Assembly: GCA_040753015.1 (NCBI GenBank)
Contig: JBFMHM010000001.1
Location: forward strand, 82,731 to 146,730
Source of the DNA: Candidatus Omnitrophota bacterium
Lineage (GTDB): Bacteria; Omnitrophota; Gorgyraeia; Gygaellales; JBFMHM01
Direction of reading: 5' to 3'
DNA: 64,000 bases
Position 1 is the stretch's first letter. Every line of letters starts with the position of its first letter. The position numbers were made by a program, and so were the translations under genes. Below the pieces are notes generated by a model. That model saw only the letters and a list, made by a program, of their open reading frames with translations. It searched no databases and was not told where the DNA came from. Below are positions 45,731 through 56,935 of the stretch, one piece after another.

Positions 45731-46033
45731 TTAAGTAATAATAGCAATTTGAATTAGTGATAAATCAATACCACCTGTAGGCTCTACTGAAGCCATTTTG
45801 GTACCAGATTGACCTGGATTTGGTAAGGCTTTTTGGGCTTGATTGGCTATAATTTCTAGTGCTTCTTGACCGCTAGGATTACCCGCAACCAACTGCGCAG
45901 TATCCGGCTTAACCCCGGCTTTAAGAAGTTTGGTTATAGCTAGATTCGTAAACATATTAATAAATTGTTTTATATCCTTTCCTAGCACAAGTATCTGCCT
46001 GGTCAGGAGCGCCGGGGGTGACGTGCCAGTCAC
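45731..46033 (-). CDS. hypothetical ORF overlapping the 3' end of the giant gene (possibly a frameshifted continuation)
   Basis: 100-aa ORF that overlaps 45957-51140 by 77 nt in another frame. No motif is recognised. Confidence 0.2.
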   Translation of the reverse strand: MTGTSPPALLTRQILVLGKDIKQFINMFTNLAITKLLKAGVKPDTAQLVAGNPSGQEALEIIANQAQKALPNPGQSGTKMASVEPTGGIDLSLIQIAIIT

Positions 46034-49000
46034 GACCCTCTTTACCTCTGTTAAAGAATTGTTGAGTTAGGCGGATGATTTGATAGTGATCTAGGTCTGT
46101 ATTTTCAAGTAATTCGTGGAGGATATATTCGTCAATTAAGTCATTTGGTAAACCATTCACTCCCTCCCTTTCACTTAAATATTGTATTAGATTAATTGCA
46201 AGAGCACTTTCAGCGCCTAAGAAGTAACGGTTAGGGCTTTCTACTTCGGCGTTAAACCAGTTAAATGGACAAGTTTCAGCTTCAGGCAGACCGAAGGCCT
46301 CGCCAGTTTTTAGTGGCGGGCCGCGTAAGCGATTGAGTAAACCTTGCGCGTCTTGTTGTGACATGCCTGCGTTGATCAATAAAGCTTCTATTTCAGCCCC
46401 TCTGTTATCCAACAACGCCTGTATTCGCCTATGCGCTAAAACAACAACTTCGCGGTTATCTTGTGCTACTTGGCTTGAGTTTGCCTTGATTGCTTCCCTC
46501 TTCCGCGCAAGTTCCTCTTCGCTGTAGCCACGCGATATTTCGCCGGTAGGAGTTTTAGTCCTCGCGTTATTAATATCGCGAATTATTCTCTCTATATCAT
46601 TTCTGACTTCCCTAGAACCTCGATTAAAAGCTGTTTCTAATGCAGGTAATGCTACTTTGCCGATTTTAATAAGGGATTCGATCGCAGAGTCGCGAACAGT
46701 AGGATCTTTCAAACACTCAATTAAAGACTCAACTGCTGGCCGACCGGTTTTAATAAGTGCTTCTCTGGCGTTATAGCGGACAGACCCATCCTCATCCTTC
46801 AAACATTTAATCAAAGGCTCAACTGCACGAGGATCGCCGATTTCGCCAAGGGCTTTGATAGCGGATTGACTGAGCAAATTGTTATCATATCTCAAGCATG
46901 CAATCAGACGCTCGACTGCTGGCCGACCAATTTTAATAAAGGCCTTAACGGCAGCTTGACGAACATTTTTATCCTCATCTCTCAGACACACAATTAGAGG
47001 ATCGACTGCCGGCTGGCCAATTTTAGCAAGGGCCTGGGCAGCTGCGTGGCGGATATCTTCGTTTTCATCTCTTAAGCACGTAATTAACGGTTCGACTATC
47101 AATGGATGACGACTCTCGCCAAGATTACGAATAATAGATTTGCGATCTGTTTCATCATCGGGATTAAGAAAACTGACCTGCCTTGCAACATCTTCTGGCA
47201 TCCCCAAATTACTTAAAAGTGTAATTAACCTACCCGTATCTATCATTAGATTTAGGAGATGAGGCGCATTAACTCTAGTAAAATCCAAATTAGTATGTGA
47301 TAATATATTGATTAAATTTCTACGCCAAGTAGCCCATTGTTCAATTTCTGGATTAAATGAGCGTTTTAATAATTGTAATAAATGTTTGTCCATAAGTTTT
47401 CGAGCTTCATCAGTACTTATCGCAGCTTCGGCATACGCAATTAAATCATTCACAACGTATGCATTACCTCTTTGCGCTAGAATGACAAGGATATCTTCTA
47501 TGTCATCCTTTGCCCGGGAAAGCCGCCATAATCTTTTACACTGTTCCTCTGTAAAATTTTTAGGATGATGTTCTGCTATTTGTCTAAGGCTAGTAGATAT
47601 TTCAGCGCTATATTTTGTAGTTTCTTGTTTATGTAGTCGGATAATTTGTAGTACCTTACGCATAGTATTTTTCGACTCTATTAACTCTAGGTATTCCAAC
47701 ATTACATCAATTGCCTTTAACCTCCCCAACTCAGCAATTGCATCTTTGCGCGCTTGATCTAAGTCAGTGCGTAAAGCAATAAGCACACGAAAGTCTGCTT
47801 TTAGTTTATGCCAATTATCATCAGTAGTTTCGATGATTTGAGCACATCTTTTAACTGCTTGCTCTCTTTGGCCTTTAGTCAAGTCGGCTGCAAGTAACAC
47901 GCCAGTTAGCTGGAATTCAAGCTCTGTGTTATATTCTTGAGGCCGTGTTTTAATAAGCGCCTCATGGAGTTCTCTTGCTTGATCTAGCGCTTCTACTGCC
48001 GGGCCGAGAAGAATACGTTCTGCTAATCTGCGTGAGTCTTGATCATATAGCTGTTGATTATGAACCATAACATCAAGCGTGCCTACTGCTTTAGGCTGGT
48101 TTATTCTAGCTAAGAGCAATGATAAAAATTCAACGCATCTTATTTTATCCGATAAGTCATAACCAGCTACAGCTAATCTAGGCTGGTTTTGGCCTAGTGT
48201 ATTAACAAAAATAGCTATTGCCTGAGGTTCTTGTACGGTTATAAGCTCTACCAAAAGATCAAAAGCAACAATGCCTTTATCTTTGGCAAAGCCTGCTAGT
48301 GCCTTAACAACATCTGCTGGTAGACGGCCAAGCATACATATATCCGAGACTCTTCTTAGTTCTCTTGCGTATATCTGTTGCGGTGAGTCACTATCTGTTG
48401 TTCTTGCTATAGCTGCAGCACTGGCTTGTTGTTTTAATTCTTGCAGCTTATTATAACTTCTACTAAGTTCAGTTTGTATTGCTTCTATGTCATCAATACT
48501 CTTTTGAAAGCTTATAGTTTGTGTTTGGCCTCTAGTTATAGTTCCTTGTTGCCTTATTGTATCTACTAAAACAATAAGCCTAGCTACAGTAGCAAGCCCA
48601 GCAATCTTATCTTCAGTTTTCATATGGGTTCTAATAGCAGCAATGTAAGGCTTGTATCTTCTTGTTTCCATCATATGGGCAAGAACATAACAAGATAATG
48701 GTAGATTAGCAAGGACTTCTTCAGTAAGCATTCCTTTGTATTGAGCAAGGCAAAGCCTAGCCCTTGCAGAGTCTAAAAAACTTAGCCAAGTTATTAGGCT
48801 TACCACATCATCAGAAGTCCTGGCAAAGCTTTTCATAAATACTAAAGTTGCTGTTTCTGTATCTAAGTAAGTGAGTAATTCTAATACAGCTGGTTGTATA
48901 TCTAACTGTCTTGTGAGATTAATTAGCATCTTAACAGCTTGCTCTCTATCACGGTTAGTACTCATAAGCAGCGCTGTTTGGCTAAACGCTTCTTGTCTTT

Positions 49001-51140
49001 GGGAATTAGTAAGACAAGTTGCTTCTTGAAGCAATGTTCTTAGCCTTTGAGCAAGCGGTAGGTTTGTAACAGGCCAGGCTCTATTTCTTAGAGAGAACAT
49101 ATCCATAACTCGTCTGGCTATACCTAATTTTTGCGGTTTTTCTTCATTTTCTGATGCTTGAGCTTCTGGAACAGCTAAAGCAGTTGTTGGTGCTATTACT
49201 TCAACAACATAATCTTCAGATAAAATACCAGCTGCTTGTAATTGTAATTCTGACCGTCTTTCATCTGTTATGGCCTCTGTAACAACAGCTAATCCTGGCG
49301 TAGATAGTTCAGCATTAGTTACAAATATTGGCCTGTTGGCAATATACCTTAAGTTCCAACCAAGCTGGCCAATAAAATAACTAACCCTTTGAGCTGACGT
49401 ACCACTATCTGCTATTCTTGTTTCACTAACGCTTTCTATAGGTAAATGTTCACATAAATAAGTAAATAAATCTTGCTTGAGATTGTCTGTAGTAACGCTT
49501 TCAATAATAACACTAGTCAAATATTCAAAAACTAGCTTAAGATAATCCGCGGAAGGAACATTCAAACTATCAAGCACGCCTCTTGATAAAAGAGCGGTTT
49601 CTTGGCCGACATAATTCAAACCAGCTTCAAGAATTAATCTTTGTTCATAGCTACCACCTCTACTTGCACGAATCCTACGGTCAAAATCTAACAATGTATA
49701 TGCTAAATGCCTACGCTTCTGTTCTGAATAAGCTAGGCCCTTGGATAAGTCTAGGTCTTGAAGAATTGCATTAGATGTTTGAGGAACACCAGCTATTAAA
49801 ATTATGGGATAATGAACCTCATCAGAAACAGCCATATACATCTCACCAGTTTTTAAGAACCTCTCTGCTGCGCCTTTGTAACTACCACTAGCTAAAACTC
49901 TACCTAGGTCTCTTTCTAACCTTTCTTGTCCTAGATCTACTCTTACATTAATACCAGCATCTTGAATATATGTACCCAGACGCATTGATCCATTTGCAGT
50001 TACACCAGGAAAGTTTTTAGGATCAAAACCTACACCCCCACTCACATAACTTCTCCTGATATTCGCCTTTAGCTCTTCATTGTAGTTAGTCTTAGTAAGG
50101 TGGTATTCCCCTTGCTTAACAGAATCTAAATAAGCAGCAAAGATTTGTTCTTTTGTTACAGGCTCTTTGGAGATTAGGCCGTTTAGGTTATTGGTGTTGA
50201 TTATTGAAGAAAAGGCGTTCTTCAGTTCGTCCGTTCGCTGGTTCGTCAGTTCTTCTAACTTTTCGCTTTGACTTTTCCCGCCTGAGGCGGGTCCGCCTTT
50301 GGCGGATACGTTTTCTTTGTACCACTTCGCAAGAATAATTGCATTGTATATTTGTCTTAAAGGCTCATATGATGGATCATGGTTTACTTTATAGGTTAGG
50401 TTAGGAAGTATTAGTTCTTTTAGTTGAGCTTCGCAGTAGGATTGTAACTCTTGGTTGTTATCAAACTCCCCCTTTATCCCCCTCTTTGGTAAAGAGGGGG
50501 TCTGGGGGAGTTGTAGATACTCACTTTCCAGTAACACTTTCAGTGTTGATTTGGTAATTACACAGCTTCCTTTACCGTCTTCGTATACTTCTGCTTTGTC
50601 TGGGACTATCCAGACACGGAAGGTTGTGGGGATAGATACAGTTCGACTGTTCTTCAGTTCGTCAGTTCGTCGGTTAGATAATTGTTTTGCCTTGGCAAAC
50701 ACACGTTCCCAATAGGTAGTTGCTCCAGTAGATAATCCGGGAAATAGGCTAAAGGCTGTGTCTTTCTTAAGCTTTAGGTCTAGGAGTAGTAGATGCTTGC
50801 CCATGTCTGTGTAGGATAGATTAGTTCCTGTGAGCCTGTTAGGTTGGTTTGGGTTAAGGTTAACCCAGAATTCAGAGTCTTGTATGGTTAGAGCGGTTAG
50901 GAAGTAGTTTATGTTGGTTTGTAGATCTTTACGTTGGTCTAGGGAAAGAATGGTGCCTTTGGGGATGTTTAGATTGAATTGGATACCTGTAGGGACAGAC
51001 CCGTGTGTCTGTCCAAATGTTATGCCTAACAATATAGGCGCCTGTAAGGGTGCGGTAACCGTACCCTGAATAAAACCCAAGCCTATTTGGCTAAAAGCTA
51101 GCGTAAAAATTAAAACCACAGAAACTATACGACGTATCAT
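45957..51140 (-). CDS. giant secreted protein (1727 aa) with PBS-lyase-type HEAT repeats
   Basis: Signal peptide MIRRIVSVVLIFTLAFSQ. The long all-alpha body has at least six HEAT-like repeats of the pattern PLI.CL.DED..VR..A..AL.KIG.PAV. Duplicated TDELKN motifs and Gly/Pro-rich in-frame palindrome segments are present. Confidence 0.7.
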   Translation of the reverse strand: MIRRIVSVVLIFTLAFSQIGLGFIQGTVTAPLQAPILLGITFGQTHGSVPTGIQFNLNIPKGTILSLDQRKDLQTNINYFLTALTIQDSEFWVNLNPNQPNRLTGTNLSYTDMGKHLLLLDLKLKKDTAFSLFPGLSTGATTYWERVFAKAKQLSNRRTDELKNSRTVSIPTTFRVWIVPDKAEVYEDGKGSCVITKSTLKVLLESEYLQLPQTPSLPKRGIKGEFDNNQELQSYCEAQLKELILPNLTYKVNHDPSYEPLRQIYNAIILAKWYKENVSAKGGPASGGKSQSEKLEELTNQRTDELKNAFSSIINTNNLNGLISKEPVTKEQIFAAYLDSVKQGEYHLTKTNYNEELKANIRRSYVSGGVGFDPKNFPGVTANGSMRLGTYIQDAGINVRVDLGQERLERDLGRVLASGSYKGAAERFLKTGEMYMAVSDEVHYPIILIAGVPQTSNAILQDLDLSKGLAYSEQKRRHLAYTLLDFDRRIRASRGGSYEQRLILEAGLNYVGQETALLSRGVLDSLNVPSADYLKLVFEYLTSVIIESVTTDNLKQDLFTYLCEHLPIESVSETRIADSGTSAQRVSYFIGQLGWNLRYIANRPIFVTNAELSTPGLAVVTEAITDERRSELQLQAAGILSEDYVVEVIAPTTALAVPEAQASENEEKPQKLGIARRVMDMFSLRNRAWPVTNLPLAQRLRTLLQEATCLTNSQRQEAFSQTALLMSTNRDREQAVKMLINLTRQLDIQPAVLELLTYLDTETATLVFMKSFARTSDDVVSLITWLSFLDSARARLCLAQYKGMLTEEVLANLPLSCYVLAHMMETRRYKPYIAAIRTHMKTEDKIAGLATVARLIVLVDTIRQQGTITRGQTQTISFQKSIDDIEAIQTELSRSYNKLQELKQQASAAAIARTTDSDSPQQIYARELRRVSDICMLGRLPADVVKALAGFAKDKGIVAFDLLVELITVQEPQAIAIFVNTLGQNQPRLAVAGYDLSDKIRCVEFLSLLLARINQPKAVGTLDVMVHNQQLYDQDSRRLAERILLGPAVEALDQARELHEALIKTRPQEYNTELEFQLTGVLLAADLTKGQREQAVKRCAQIIETTDDNWHKLKADFRVLIALRTDLDQARKDAIAELGRLKAIDVMLEYLELIESKNTMRKVLQIIRLHKQETTKYSAEISTSLRQIAEHHPKNFTEEQCKRLWRLSRAKDDIEDILVILAQRGNAYVVNDLIAYAEAAISTDEARKLMDKHLLQLLKRSFNPEIEQWATWRRNLINILSHTNLDFTRVNAPHLLNLMIDTGRLITLLSNLGMPEDVARQVSFLNPDDETDRKSIIRNLGESRHPLIVEPLITCLRDENEDIRHAAAQALAKIGQPAVDPLIVCLRDEDKNVRQAAVKAFIKIGRPAVERLIACLRYDNNLLSQSAIKALGEIGDPRAVEPLIKCLKDEDGSVRYNAREALIKTGRPAVESLIECLKDPTVRDSAIESLIKIGKVALPALETAFNRGSREVRNDIERIIRDINNARTKTPTGEISRGYSEEELARKREAIKANSSQVAQDNREVVVLAHRRIQALLDNRGAEIEALLINAGMSQQDAQGLLNRLRGPPLKTGEAFGLPEAETCPFNWFNAEVESPNRYFLGAESALAINLIQYLSEREGVNGLPNDLIDEYILHELLENTDLDHYQIIRLTQQFFNRGKEGRDWHVTPGAPDQADTCARKGYKTIY

Positions 51141-51143
51141 TTA

Positions 51144-51191
51144 ATTCTCTCCGTATGTTCCCGTGGCTTATAATAAAGTATACACTATAAA
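51144..51191. repeat. 48-bp exact direct repeat (promoter/5'UTR of the giant gene), copy A
   Basis: ATTCTCTCCGTATGTTCCCGTGGCTTATAATAAAGTATACACTATAAA is identical at 55413-55460. Confidence 0.8.
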
Positions 51192-51222
51192 TACATATAT
51201 TTCAAGGCAATACGAATTTCGT

Positions 51223-53113: not shown

Positions 53114-53963
53114 AAAATTTTGCTCCTTCTTGCTGTATTAAACCCTTTATTTGCATAATCGAGATTGCACTGCTAATTTGCGAGGCAGAAACTTTAAGTT
53201 TACGTGCTAACACATCTATTTCTTGCGGCTCATTTTTTAATGTTTCAATTATGCTTGCCTCTAATTTGCTTAAATCTTGATTACCTGAGCGCGCATCTTT
53301 AGTAATAGTATTTGTTATTCCATAATGCAATAGTATATCCTCAGCAGAACTTACAACACTTGCCCCTTCTTTAATTAATTGTAATGTACCATAAGAAACA
53401 CTGCTGTTAATTGGCCCGGGAACACTAAAAATTTTTCTTTTAAATTTTTTAGCAAAACCTGCAGTAATTAATGAACCACTATTTTCGCCTGCTTCAACAA
53501 CTAACGTGCCTAAAGAAAGCCCGGCAATAATCCTATTTCTTTGTGGGTATGTCCAAAGCTGAGGTAGGGTAGCGCCTTCATATTCTGAAATAATTAGGCC
53601 ATTATTTTTCAAAATTTGAGTGTATAAATCTTCTTGGTATGCCGGGTGAATCATATTAATACCGCAAGGCATAACAGCAATAGTCCTACCTCCTCCCTCA
53701 AGGGCTGCCTTATGCGCTGTTGCGTCAATCCCATACATGAATCCTGATACTATTGTTACGCCTAAAGTTGCAATTTCAGAGACTATCTTTTGCGTAGCCT
53801 GTTTGCCATAAGTAGTCATCTTGCGAGAACCAACAACTGCTAAGCAATTTACAAAAATTTCTGAATCTAGTTTGCCTTTATAGTAAAGCTGCTTGGGAGG
53901 AGATTTTATCGTTTTAAGTAATGTGGGGTATTCTGAATCGCTAAATTTAACAACACCTTGCAT
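53103..53963 (-). CDS. dprA: DNA processing protein DprA
   Basis: The Rossmann-like domain reads LAVVGSRKMTTYGKQ...GLIISEYE...PQRNRIIAGLS. A C-terminal winged-helix-like domain follows. Length is 286 aa. Confidence 0.8.
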   Translation of the reverse strand: MQGVVKFSDSEYPTLLKTIKSPPKQLYYKGKLDSEIFVNCLAVVGSRKMTTYGKQATQKIVSEIATLGVTIVSGFMYGIDATAHKAALEGGGRTIAVMPCGINMIHPAYQEDLYTQILKNNGLIISEYEGATLPQLWTYPQRNRIIAGLSLGTLVVEAGENSGSLITAGFAKKFKRKIFSVPGPINSSVSYGTLQLIKEGASVVSSAEDILLHYGITNTITKDARSGNQDLSKLEASIIETLKNEPQEIDVLARKLKVSASQISSAISIMQIKGLIQQEGAKFYVN

Positions 53964-54002
53964 AGAGATTTTTTATCACACAAATACCGCTATGTCAAGG
54001 TA

Positions 54003-54509
54003 TTATAAAGATATTTTTTTAATATCTAGAGACTTGCAGAGCAACAATAATGTATTAAGCGTAATATTCTTTTTGCCCTCTTCAATTTTTGAAATATCCG
54101 GCTGATCAATACCGGTAACCAATGCTAAGTCCTTTTGACTTAAACCTTTCTCTATGCGCGCAATTTTAATTGTTTTTCCAATATTTAAAAATGATATTGG
54201 TACTGCCCCTTTAAATGTATGTTTTTTTTGAATACCTTTTTTTTCCAAAAGTTGATCGTAAACAGTTTGCCACCACTGCCGAAAATCTGATTTCTTTTCA
54301 ACTTTAATCCAATATAATTTTACCCTAGTCCAATTTTTAATAAATTCGTCTTTGGAAATAACAGAAAAAATTATTTTTGGCTCATCACATCGAGAAAATA
54401 AATTGACCAAGCGAATAATAAATTTAGGATGATTTGGATCTTTAAGAATTACTTTGGTTTCCTTTAAGGCCTTATCATTTAAGTCCCAAAAATATTTCGA
54501 TATATCCAT
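54003..54509 (-). CDS. XRE-family HTH protein with N-terminal domain of unknown function
   Basis: The C-terminal HTH reads IARIEKGLSQKDLALVTGIDQPDISKIEEGKKNITLNTLLLLCKSL. Its ATG overlaps the stop of the upstream gene (ATGA). Confidence 0.6.
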   Translation of the reverse strand: MDISKYFWDLNDKALKETKVILKDPNHPKFIIRLVNLFSRCDEPKIIFSVISKDEFIKNWTRVKLYWIKVEKKSDFRQWWQTVYDQLLEKKGIQKKHTFKGAVPISFLNIGKTIKIARIEKGLSQKDLALVTGIDQPDISKIEEGKKNITLNTLLLLCKSLDIKKISL

Positions 54510-55219
54510 TATTCAATTTCCTCCGCCATAAATTTTTTGACTTCGTTTTCTAGATAAATAATCATTTCTCGAGAATCAAAGTTTTTTATATAAATATCCA
54601 TATCAAGTAAATCAAATTTCAAATCCTGTCTAGAAAATGTTTGATACCAGTAAATCATGCCTCTTTGAATCTGACGGGGCAGTGTTTTTAAAAATAAATG
54701 CAGCGGCTCAATTTTCTTTGAAAGCATATAAATATCAAAAACATCTCGCGCTTTTCTCCTGCCCTCCATTATCTCAGCACCCACATCATTTTCTTTTATG
54801 CTTAAACCCGTAATAGTTGTGATTTTTTGCAAATAGATAATTTTCACATCGTAAACAGGCACTCCATCAAAATATTTTATTTTAGGTTTATCAAAAATAA
54901 CATCTTCAACAAAATCAAGTTTTAGGGATCTTTTTGTGCTTTTTATCGGGACAGAATAAAATCTCACTTTAGCCATATTTGGAGCTATAAACTCTGATTC
55001 AAGCTTTATATTAAGCCTTGTTTCTTTTTTAAATTCTTTTACAATCTCATTTATCTCTTTTACATCATATATCGGTGAAAAAAAATCCAAATCAACAGAA
55101 AACCTGTGATACAAATAATAAAGTTCGAGTGCGGTTCCACCCGTAAGTGCGAATGTTTTTGTTTTTTTCGCAAAAATATTTAAAATCTTATGCTGTAATT
55201 GCCTATTTTCCTTATCCAT
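54509..55219 (-). CDS. AbiEii-like nucleotidyltransferase (type IV toxin family, DUF1814)
   Basis: KTFALTGGTALELYYLYHRFSVDLDFF matches the AbiEii GGTAL...R.S.DLDF motif. Length is 236 aa. Confidence 0.65.
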   Translation of the reverse strand: MDKENRQLQHKILNIFAKKTKTFALTGGTALELYYLYHRFSVDLDFFSPIYDVKEINEIVKEFKKETRLNIKLESEFIAPNMAKVRFYSVPIKSTKRSLKLDFVEDVIFDKPKIKYFDGVPVYDVKIIYLQKITTITGLSIKENDVGAEIMEGRRKARDVFDIYMLSKKIEPLHLFLKTLPRQIQRGMIYWYQTFSRQDLKFDLLDMDIYIKNFDSREMIIYLENEVKKFMAEEIE

Positions 55220-55295
55220 ATCATCATAATTTTTATAGTTTATAAACTATATCTAATATAGAGTATAAACTATATTTTATGTTTTGTCAAGTTCT

Positions 55296-55460
55296 AATTT
55301 ACACAAGACTCCCCTTTCTTCGTATATTTTTGCTTCGTCTGGTACGATCCAGACACGGAAGATTGTGGGGATAGATACGGTTCGACTGTTCGTCAGTTCT
55401 TCAGTTCTTTTGATTCTCTCCGTATGTTCCCGTGGCTTATAATAAAGTATACACTATAAA
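55296..55460 (-). pseudogene. degenerate 5' remnant of a giant-gene paralogue: promoter copy B plus an internally deleted coding fragment
   Basis: 55413-55460 is identical to 51144-51191. 55300-55412 is about 85% identical to 50560-50680, which encodes ...EELTNSRTVSIPTIFRVWIVPDEAKIYEE, compared with NSRTVSIPTTFRVWIVPDKAEVYED in the intact gene. The first 450 nt or so of coding sequence are missing. Confidence 0.5.
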
Positions 55461-55519
55461 CTCAAAATTTTGCACTTTTTCTCTTTTATTTTTAATAATA
55501 TATTATATAATTTACTATT

Positions 55520-56935
55520 ATGCCAATTACACTAAAATTTTGTGGTGGAGCACGCACTGTCACTGGCTCCATGCACTTACTAACTGTAGACAGAGTAAAA
55601 ATTTTAATTGACTGTGGCTTATTTCAAGGCAGGCGCGATGAATTTTTTGCGGTAAACTCTGAATTTCCTTTTGAACCTTCAGGAATAGATAACTGTATTA
55701 TATCCCATGCCCATATTGACCACTGCGGAAATTTTCCAACTTTAGTTCGAAAAGGGTTTCGTGGAAAAGCCTATCTTACACCTCAAACGCGCGATCTCTT
55801 ACGCTACATGTTACCAGATTCTGGACATATACAAGAAGAAGATATTAAATATGTAAATAAAATTAATCGCAGACGAGGATTGCTTCCTCGTTGGCCGCTC
55901 TATACACAAGCTGATGCAGAAAAATCTTTAAAATTTCTTAGGCCAATTGAATACCGCAAAACTATCGATATAGCCAAGGGTACAGGCCTTACTTTATATG
56001 ACTCCGGGCATATCCTAGGCGCATCAATTCCTGTAATTGATATCGAAACTAATAAAGGAAAAATTAGAATTGCTTATGCTGTGGATCTTGGCCGGCCAAA
56101 CCTACCTTACTTAAAGAATCCGGAGATTCCTGAAGATATAGATTACATTATAATAGAAAGTACTTATGGCGGAAAATCACACTCTGCTATTGAAACCGCT
56201 GAGAAAAAATTAGAAATTGCAATAAATAAGACTGTAAGACGCGGTGGAAAAGTTATTATACCTGCATTCGCGTTAGAAAGATCTCAAGAAGTTTTATATT
56301 TCATTGCGCGACTTTTTAAACATAAAAAAATCGAAGATATACCTGTATATGTTGACTCTCCGCTTGCAGTAGATATCACAAAAGTATTTATGAGCCATTG
56401 GGATTATTTTGATGAGGAAACCAGAAATACTTTTCAAAAAGAACTAGGACCGCTTTCGCACCATAATATAAACTATATATCCAATGTGAATCAATCAAAA
56501 AAACTAAATGACAAGAAAGGCCCAATGATTATAATCTCTTCATCGGGAATGTGTGAAAACGGGCGTATATTGCACCATCTAAAAAATAATATCGAAAACC
56601 CTTACAACACAATAATCGTAGTAGGCTTTATGGCAAAAGATACTTTAGGTAGAAAAATTGTTGATAAAAAACCTTTCGTCAATATTTTTGGCAGGCCTTA
56701 TCAATTAAACGCAGAAGTAGTATTAGACGATGCCTTTAGTGCTCACGCTGATAGAGAATATCTTGTTAAATATATAAAAGAATGCCGTAAATACGGAAGG
56801 CTTAAAAAAATATTCATTGTTCACGGTGAACCTAATCAATCTGATGAACTCAGAAAATCATTAAAATCATTAAACCTGCGAGTCTCTGTACCTGAAAAAA
56901 ATGAAGTAGCATTTCTTAATGCAAACCAGAAATAA
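55520..56935 (+). CDS. beta-CASP family ribonuclease (MBL fold, RNA-specificity domain)
   Basis: PITLKFCGGARTVTGSMHLLTVDRVKILIDCGLFQG and HAHIDHCGNFP match the family. The C-terminal beta-CASP His motifs are present. Confidence 0.78.
   Translation: MPITLKFCGGARTVTGSMHLLTVDRVKILIDCGLFQGRRDEFFAVNSEFPFEPSGIDNCIISHAHIDHCGNFPTLVRKGFRGKAYLTPQTRDLLRYMLPDSGHIQEEDIKYVNKINRRRGLLPRWPLYTQADAEKSLKFLRPIEYRKTIDIAKGTGLTLYDSGHILGASIPVIDIETNKGKIRIAYAVDLGRPNLPYLKNPEIPEDIDYIIIESTYGGKSHSAIETAEKKLEIAINKTVRRGGKVIIPAFALERSQEVLYFIARLFKHKKIEDIPVYVDSPLAVDITKVFMSHWDYFDEETRNTFQKELGPLSHHNINYISNVNQSKKLNDKKGPMIIISSSGMCENGRILHHLKNNIENPYNTIIVVGFMAKDTLGRKIVDKKPFVNIFGRPYQLNAEVVLDDAFSAHADREYLVKYIKECRKYGRLKKIFIVHGEPNQSDELRKSLKSLNLRVSVPEKNEVAFLNANQK

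Follow-up and report, generated by a model that had tools for sequence, protein, structure and literature searches.

A toxin-first AbiEii-family cassette with an XRE-type partner in an Omnitrophota genome, probably a mobile toxin-antitoxin module

The 64,000-nucleotide stretch analysed here (the window; positions 82,731 to 146,730 of contig JBFMHM010000001.1, assembly GCA_040753015.1, Candidatus Omnitrophota bacterium) carries on its minus strand a compact two-gene cassette of 1.3 kb, in which a gene for an AbiEii-family nucleotidyltransferase is followed by a gene for a helix-turn-helix (HTH) protein of the XRE type. We consider it likely that the pair is a mobile, autoregulated toxin-antitoxin cassette, possibly acting by abortive infection, in which the putative toxin is encoded first and its partner represents a new antitoxin family. 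The nucleotidyltransferase would be toxic, and the partner would both neutralise it and bind the operon's own DNA. Sequence comparisons support the antitoxin family and the inverted operon as new, whereas the toxin family is already known. The cassette and its coding parts are the following:

54001 to 55300, minus strand: whole conserved cassette, with promoter, operators and two genes (delimited by blastn against 74 related loci and by unshared flanking genes)
54509 to 55219, minus strand: AbiEii/DUF1814 nucleotidyltransferase, 236 aa, putative toxin (PF08843, PADLOC, NCBI name, 4O8S/4OK0)
54003 to 54509, minus strand: two-domain protein, 168 aa, putative antitoxin and autorepressor (open reading frame (ORF) with >360 full-length homologues)
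54237 to 54509, minus strand: N-terminal five-helix domain of the partner, residues 1-91, Trp/Phe-rich, without family match
54006 to 54197, minus strand: C-terminal XRE/Cro-C1 HTH domain of the partner, residues 105-168

The two genes share a single base, 54509, at which the stop codon of the first meets the start codon of the second (GAATAATGG; a TAATG junction, GAA-TAA-TGG). An earlier note, made from the letters of this DNA, had described the genes as overlapping by ATGA. The overlap is real, but its form is not the one described: ATGA is the commonest junction in the relatives (52 of 61 loci), whereas the window has TAATG, which occurs in 6 of the 61. The same note had remarked that no AbiEi gene lies upstream, and this holds. 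The 300 nt between the nucleotidyltransferase start codon and a divergent gene for a beta-CASP metallo-beta-lactamase contain no ORF, and hence none resembling AbiEi.

Judged by its sequence, the product of the first gene is a member of the AbiEii/DUF1814 family. Residues 17-170 align with the Pfam family PF08843 (AbiEii) at 63.7 bits (gathering score 22.5; E=3.1e-17), and 21 PADLOC AbiEii models are matched as well; no specific model was found in NCBIfam. A public protein that is 100% identical (P0121) is named 'nucleotidyl transferase AbiEii/AbiGii toxin family protein' at NCBI. Near the N terminus stands LTGGTALELYYLYHRFSVDLDFF, and the LTGGTAL...HRFSVDLDFF signature, from which the earlier note had recognised an AbiEii-like enzyme, is present. 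Comparison of the family profile with the PDB retrieved 4O8S/4OK0 as the nearest solved structure by sequence (E=1.2e-6). The entry is described only as 'Putative'; we take it to be JHP933 of Helicobacter pylori. It is a distant relative only, which has GxTAL...RFSxDLDF and KARDxFD in common with the window nucleotidyltransferase, and in 4O8S the K-to-D spacing is shorter by about 11 residues.

AbiEii proteins possess four motifs, and mutation of any of them abolishes toxicity (Dy et al., PMC3985639). Their counterparts in the window nucleotidyltransferase, and the codons of two of them, are:

Motif I: G49/G50 in AbiEii; G27-G28 in the window (within L25-T-G27-G28)
Motif II: R63, D67 and D69 in AbiEii; R39, D43 and D45 in the window
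Motif III: K173 and R180 in AbiEii; K132 and R154 in the window
Motif IV (with DxxD): D192 in AbiEii; R158-D159-V-F-D162 in the window
55085 to 55105, minus strand: codons of motif II, R39-F-S41-V-D43-L-D45, with the metal-binding Asp residues and a Ser at the phospho-acceptor position (from the sequence; invariant in the family)
54734 to 54748, minus strand: codons of motif IV, R158-D159-V-F-D162 (invariant columns)

All residues of motifs I to IV are invariant in an alignment of 33 close homologues from the window's own subfamily (subfamily 1), and it is to this 33-sequence alignment that the invariance of R158 refers. A broader set of 96 unique pairs includes a second nucleotidyltransferase subfamily, only 34% identical to the first, and across it G27, G28, R39, S41, D43, D45, K132, R154, D159 and D162 are each at least 95% conserved. 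The catalytic residues, whose absence the earlier note had named as grounds for giving up its reading, are therefore in place. By motif spacing and the literature, rather than by a computed alignment with the MenT and AbiEii proteins, Ser41, two residues before D43, occupies the position of AbiEii T65 (R63-x-T65-x-D67-x-D69; PMC3985639; bioRxiv 10.64898/2026.01.19.700257). The authors' structural superposition equates AbiEii T65 with MenT3 S78 and MenT1 T39 (PMC11375011; bioRxiv 10.64898/2026.01.19.700257). The Ser/Thr two residues before the first catalytic Asp that characterises type VII systems is found here as S41.

The partner protein has the two-part make-up that the earlier note had proposed, a C-terminal XRE HTH preceded by a novel domain. 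The HTH covers residues 114-163 (HTH_3, E=1.4e-12, Pfam) and is nearest to the restriction-modification controller proteins C.BclI, C.Esp1396I and C.AhdI and to HipB, with a weak NCBIfam match to the MqsA and HigA models. The protein matched XRE HTH models only and none of the AbiEi models of Pfam and PADLOC. A 100% identical public copy is annotated 'helix-turn-helix transcriptional regulator'. Residues 1-105, by contrast, retrieved zero family matches in Pfam, NCBIfam and PADLOC. AlphaFold2 predicts two domains for the full protein, with a disordered linker at residues 94-101 (mean predicted local distance difference test (pLDDT) score 87), and five helices for the N-terminal domain alone (pLDDT 87, predicted template-modelling score 0.73). 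A Foldseek search of the latter model against viral models gave zero matches.

When 1.84 billion cluster representatives were searched exhaustively by phmmer, only 66 proteins matched the N-terminal domain. We read 33 of these; wherever the sequence is long enough for the order to be seen, the domain is N-terminal with an XRE HTH behind it. The domain has a set of invariant aromatic residues (Y6, W8, F30, F48, F56, W60, W67, W79 and W80) together with an invariant R40-C41. A few carriers have C-terminal extensions that bring the total length to 296-1249 aa, and in the three whose extensions were scanned (P0245, P0250 and P0253) no Pfam match was obtained. Extended partners of 411-1249 aa with the nucleotidyltransferase still upstream are encoded at L057 4001-7750 (a Goldbacteria genome bin), at L059 4001-5308 (FCPU426) and in P0245 and P0255; such proteins may be sensor-fused antitoxins.

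The two genes are found together well beyond this genome. Subfamily-1 loci were collected with a profile of the partner protein, taking one genome per species, which yielded 70 loci. Most belong to Omnitrophota, the rest to Elusimicrobia, Nitrospirae/Thermodesulfovibrionales, WOR-1, Goldbacteria, Ratteibacteria, FCPU426 and bins labelled Planctomycetia. In 58 of the 61 callable loci the nucleotidyltransferase gene is the immediate upstream neighbour, on the same strand and overlapping by 4 bases or 1. Subfamily 2 was recognised among the 66 representatives, its N-terminal domain being about 31% identical to that of the window subfamily. A metagenome scan for it gave 80 loci, 71 of them with enough upstream sequence, and the nucleotidyltransferase was directly upstream in 68 of these 71, matching the window-family profile at E ~1e-40. 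Look-ups seeded with the nucleotidyltransferase on long contigs retrieved an HTH gene of 167-172 aa immediately downstream in all six cases (6/6). The recurrence for which the earlier note had suggested looking thus holds for two divergent subfamilies and for searches started from either gene, and the toxin-first gene order and the domain order of the partner are kept in >130 loci.

Pairwise identities of the nucleotidyltransferase and of the N-terminal domain of the partner are strongly correlated (r=0.96 overall; 0.81 and 0.93 within the two subfamilies), which indicates that the two proteins are inherited as a unit. Derivatives in which the nucleotidyltransferase gene carries a deletion while the downstream gene is intact have arisen at least six times independently (L013, L027, L047, L054, L060 and L061). 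Separately, orphan copies of the partner with no nucleotidyltransferase upstream were observed within clusters resembling toxin-antitoxin islands (L092 1994-4215 and L115 3800-4323). Their neighbours, identified by eye from ORF translations rather than by family search, look like a ribbon-helix-helix protein with a PIN protein (VapBC-like), a Phd-like with a Fic/Doc-like protein, and a ParD/ParE-like pair (ParE/RelE-type).

The region upstream of the first gene contains a promoter and two putative operators:

55262 to 55290, minus strand: sigma-70-type promoter, TTGACA at 55290-55285, 17-nt spacer, TATACT at 55267-55262 (promoter scan)
55257 to 55274, no strand assigned: operator O1, TATAGAGTATAAACTATA, imperfect 18-bp palindrome over the -10 hexamer (0 mismatches to TATAGnnTATAnnCTATA; direct repeat D12)
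55234 to 55251, no strand assigned: operator O2, TATAGTTTATAAACTATA, perfect 18-bp palindrome between the -10 hexamer and the start codon (0 mismatches)

The promoter scores 11 of 12 matches, the top value of its region in the promoter scan, and an exact TTGACA precedes the nucleotidyltransferase gene in 46 of 53 subfamily-1 loci. O1 and O2 are spaced 23 bp apart and are the sole perfect matches to TATAGnnTATAnnCTATA within the window. Of 53 related loci, 46 likewise have paired sites at 22-23 bp; the background rate is 0.12 hits per kb. In 38 of 40 subfamily-2 loci a different perfect palindrome, TACTACTTATAAGTAGTA, lies between TTGACA and the -10 hexamer, and the start of the recognition helix likewise differs between the subfamilies (QQYVS versus QPDIS). 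This joint change of operator and HTH is good, though indirect, support for dimeric binding of the partner to its own promoter. It is therefore probable, from these sequence patterns, that the XRE partner autorepresses its operon through the putative palindromic operators. The best candidate for an internal promoter of the antitoxin gene reached 9 of 12 matches only, which is not above shuffled sequence.

In the mechanism that we favour, both genes would be transcribed together from the sigma-70 promoter, and their translation would be coupled. The nucleotidyltransferase, judged by its homology to MenT1, MenT3 and AbiEii, would add nucleotides to the 3' acceptor ends of tRNA and so stop translation. 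The XRE HTH of the partner, as a dimer, would repress the operon by occupying the two 18-bp palindromes, which cover the -10 hexamer and the transcription start, and its N-terminal helical domain would neutralise the nucleotidyltransferase, most likely through direct binding. Alternatively, neutralisation could proceed by induced autophosphorylation of the conserved Ser41. MenA1, MenA3 and AbiEi, antitoxins unrelated to one another, each induce autophosphorylation at the Ser/Thr equivalent to S41 (PMC11375011; bioRxiv 10.64898/2026.01.19.700257), and this route is plausible because S41 is conserved and three unrelated antitoxins act in this way. A further-reaching proposal, which we advance as speculative, is that the N-terminal domain of about 90 residues is a structurally unprecedented DUF1814 antitoxin fold, the fourth unrelated one, which induces Ser41 autophosphorylation (type VII). 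Fusion to the XRE domain would then couple toxin control to repression, and the variants extended by 400-1250 aa would be sensor-coupled antitoxins. Were this so, the cassette would constitute a dedicated phage-defence or stress switch for Omnitrophota and neighbouring uncultivated phyla.

Several points weigh against reading the cassette as a toxin-antitoxin module. The nucleotidyltransferase is only remotely similar to the toxins that have been studied, and a PDB sequence search with it reached 4O8S/4OK0 only and none of the MenT and AbiEii structures. Since none of the relatives of the N-terminal domain has a known function, its neutralising role can be suggested just tentatively, from co-occurrence and from analogy with MqsA and HigA. 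The asymmetry of broken nucleotidyltransferase genes beside intact partner genes is biased, because most loci were found via the partner protein, and it was down-weighted in our analysis. Finally, a tblastn search of plasmids and a scan of IMG/VR viral contigs detected no copy of the cassette, so its location gives no sign of a role in addiction or phage defence.

A different explanation, to which we give little credence, would make the XRE partner a purely transcriptional controller of a toxic or defence nucleotidyltransferase, comparable to the C proteins of restriction-modification systems, with the N-terminal domain sensing a phage or stress ligand signal. The closest likeness of the HTH to C.BclI, C.Esp1396I and C.AhdI agrees with this, as do the two neighbouring palindromes over the promoter, which resemble C-boxes, and the long C-terminal extensions of some members (411-1249 aa), which look like added sensor modules. 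However, a toxin translated before its only regulator, and coupled to it, would be lethal on entry of the cassette into a new cell unless it were neutralised at the protein level, and every DUF1814 toxin studied so far has an antitoxin that acts at that level (PMC11375011). Co-divergence with the nucleotidyltransferase is moreover no looser for the N-terminal domain than for the HTH (r=0.96 versus 0.94).

The distribution of the cassette bears on its mobility. When positions 53800-55600 were compared by blastn with the 74 related loci, DNA similarity was confined to 55300-54001, a segment reaching from the -35 hexamer as far as the second gene's stop codon. The genes that adjoin the cassette in the window (DprA, ComM, UPF0102, beta-CASP and others) were found in no related locus, and 152 of 212 neighbouring ORFs were singletons. 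Loci retrieved with the nucleotidyltransferase are flanked by unrelated housekeeping genes (gyrA, dxs, pyrimidine and shikimate genes) and, once, by a restriction-modification system.

These data also concern the explanation that the nucleotidyltransferase is a benign modifier accompanied by a dedicated transcription factor, for instance a nucleotidyltransferase acting on small molecules or antibiotics, or a housekeeping enzyme of RNA modification. The toxicity of the enzyme is deduced from homology, DUF1814 proteins without linked antitoxins exist (PMC3985639), and the cassettes reside among housekeeping genes and not in mobile elements, all of which would suit a benign enzyme. Against this, a patchy, cassette-like spread over several phyla with unrelated flanks is what selfish or defence modules typically show, in contrast to metabolic enzymes. 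The tight gene overlap, the strong autorepression architecture, the recurrent nucleotidyltransferase deletions, the toxin-antitoxin neighbours of some copies and the conservation of the toxin-critical motifs point the same way, and we regard a benign function as rather improbable. That the genes are adjacent by chance, or that the ORFs are mis-called and form no functional pair, is refuted by the >130 independent loci, the agreement of both search directions, the conserved overlap, and the hundreds of full-length homologues and confident AlphaFold2 models for both proteins.

The toxin-antitoxin reading can be set against known systems. AbiE of Streptococcus agalactiae and Lactococcus and MenAT1/3/4 of Mycobacterium tuberculosis likewise have a PF08843 toxin with the four motifs and a residue at the phospho-acceptor position (Ser in the window). 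They also share the bicistronic operon and inverted repeats over the promoter that fit autoregulation by the partner. In the known pairs the regulator gene precedes the nucleotidyltransferase gene (Dy et al., PMC3985639), whereas the window cassette has the toxin first. The window partner, moreover, is neither a COG5340/AbiEi protein, with winged HTH and C-terminal domain, nor MenA1-like; three antitoxin families have been counted for DUF1814 toxins (PMC11375011). Like an AbiE operon, the cassette has overlapping genes and two palindromes over the -10 hexamer and position +1, but it differs in the kind of repeat and of binding domain: its 18-bp palindromes suit a dimer, while the 23-bp repeats of AbiEi are bound by monomers. 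Membership in AbiE as defined (Dy et al. 2014, PADLOC) was rejected, as no COG5340/AbiEi gene is located immediately upstream.

In architecture the cassette is closer to MqsR/MqsA and HigB/HigA, in which the toxin gene also comes first and the antitoxin combines a C-terminal XRE-type HTH, expected to contact palindromes of its own promoter, with a separate N-terminal domain for the toxin. This toxin-first type II arrangement is the one found in the window. The toxins differ, being a nucleotidyltransferase here and RelE-like RNases there, and the N-terminal domain of the window partner is not the zinc-binding domain of MqsA. Pairs of abiEii with HTH_XRE or with higA have been counted computationally in Pseudomonas aeruginosa, where they were called hard to classify and are predicted only (PMC9424990). 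Compared by gene-pair description only, these too combine an AbiEii-family gene with an XRE-type HTH instead of AbiEi. Our literature search found no account of an AbiEii-first/XRE arrangement beyond that count (PMC9424990). None of the 66 cluster representatives with the N-terminal domain could be assigned to Pseudomonas.

DUF1814/AbiEii toxins are among the most abundant phage-defence and toxin-antitoxin families, and a current question in the field is whether induced autophosphorylation is their universal mode of control. To this family the cassette would add one more unrelated partner family, with the opposite gene order, a small helical domain without relatives and clean, subfamily-specific operators. 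Since free exchange of partners is known among toxin-antitoxin modules, the new pairing is unsurprising in principle and the gain is incremental. Defence-system finders that require AbiEi would overlook the cassette and report an orphan AbiEii, and its description extends what little is known of toxin-antitoxin and defence systems in Omnitrophota, Elusimicrobia and related uncultivated lineages.

Downstream of the cassette are dprA, a gene for a ComM-type Mg-chelatase-like ATPase and a UPF0102 gene (yraN). The earlier note had placed the pair next to the competence genes dprA and comM. These neighbours were correctly named, but the setting carries no meaning for the pair, being absent from all related loci, and a functional tie to dprA/comM was rejected on that ground. 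Considering the unrelated flanks and the arrest of DNA similarity at the cassette ends, the adjacency is incidental. The stop codon of the partner gene is separated from the dprA start codon by only 39 nt (53963-54003), with no terminator-like site predicted, and the cassette promoter may read through into dprA-comM-yraN in this genome.

On the other side, a 155-nt stretch just upstream of the cassette (55317-55471) is about 90% identical to 51137-51202 and 50578-50668, two pieces of the 5' end of a giant gene of 1727 aa (45957..51140, minus strand). The copied pieces comprise its promoter, ribosome-binding site and start region and an internal segment about 470 nt further in. Read on the minus strand, the upstream copy has ...TEELTNSRTVSIPTIFRVWIVPDEAKIYEE where the giant gene has TDELKNSRTVSIPTTFRVWIVPDKAEVYED, with AAA replacing the ATG of the gene. 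Its sequence suggests that 55317-55471 is a duplicate of the giant gene's 5' end that has decayed and lost an internal part. The duplicate and the real 5' end bracket the block yraN-comM-dprA-cassette.

A match to the operator motif with two mismatches, AATAAAGTATACACTATA, is present in both copies of the giant-gene promoter (51172-51189 and 55441-55458), and several related loci have operator halves identical to one of its half-sites (TATAGTGTATA as read on the opposite strand). Operator-like matches number five in the window, two of them the true operators, against 0.76 expected per window; the AATAAAGTATACACTATA matches may be due to chance in AT-rich DNA. The giant 1727-aa ORF itself (45957-51140, minus strand) encodes HEAT/PBS-lyase-like repeats near its C terminus, visible on the plus strand as DNA repeats of 90-93 nt (46704-47029), and near its 5' end it contains 8-nt periodic GTTCNTCA repeats that encode (T)DELKN motifs.

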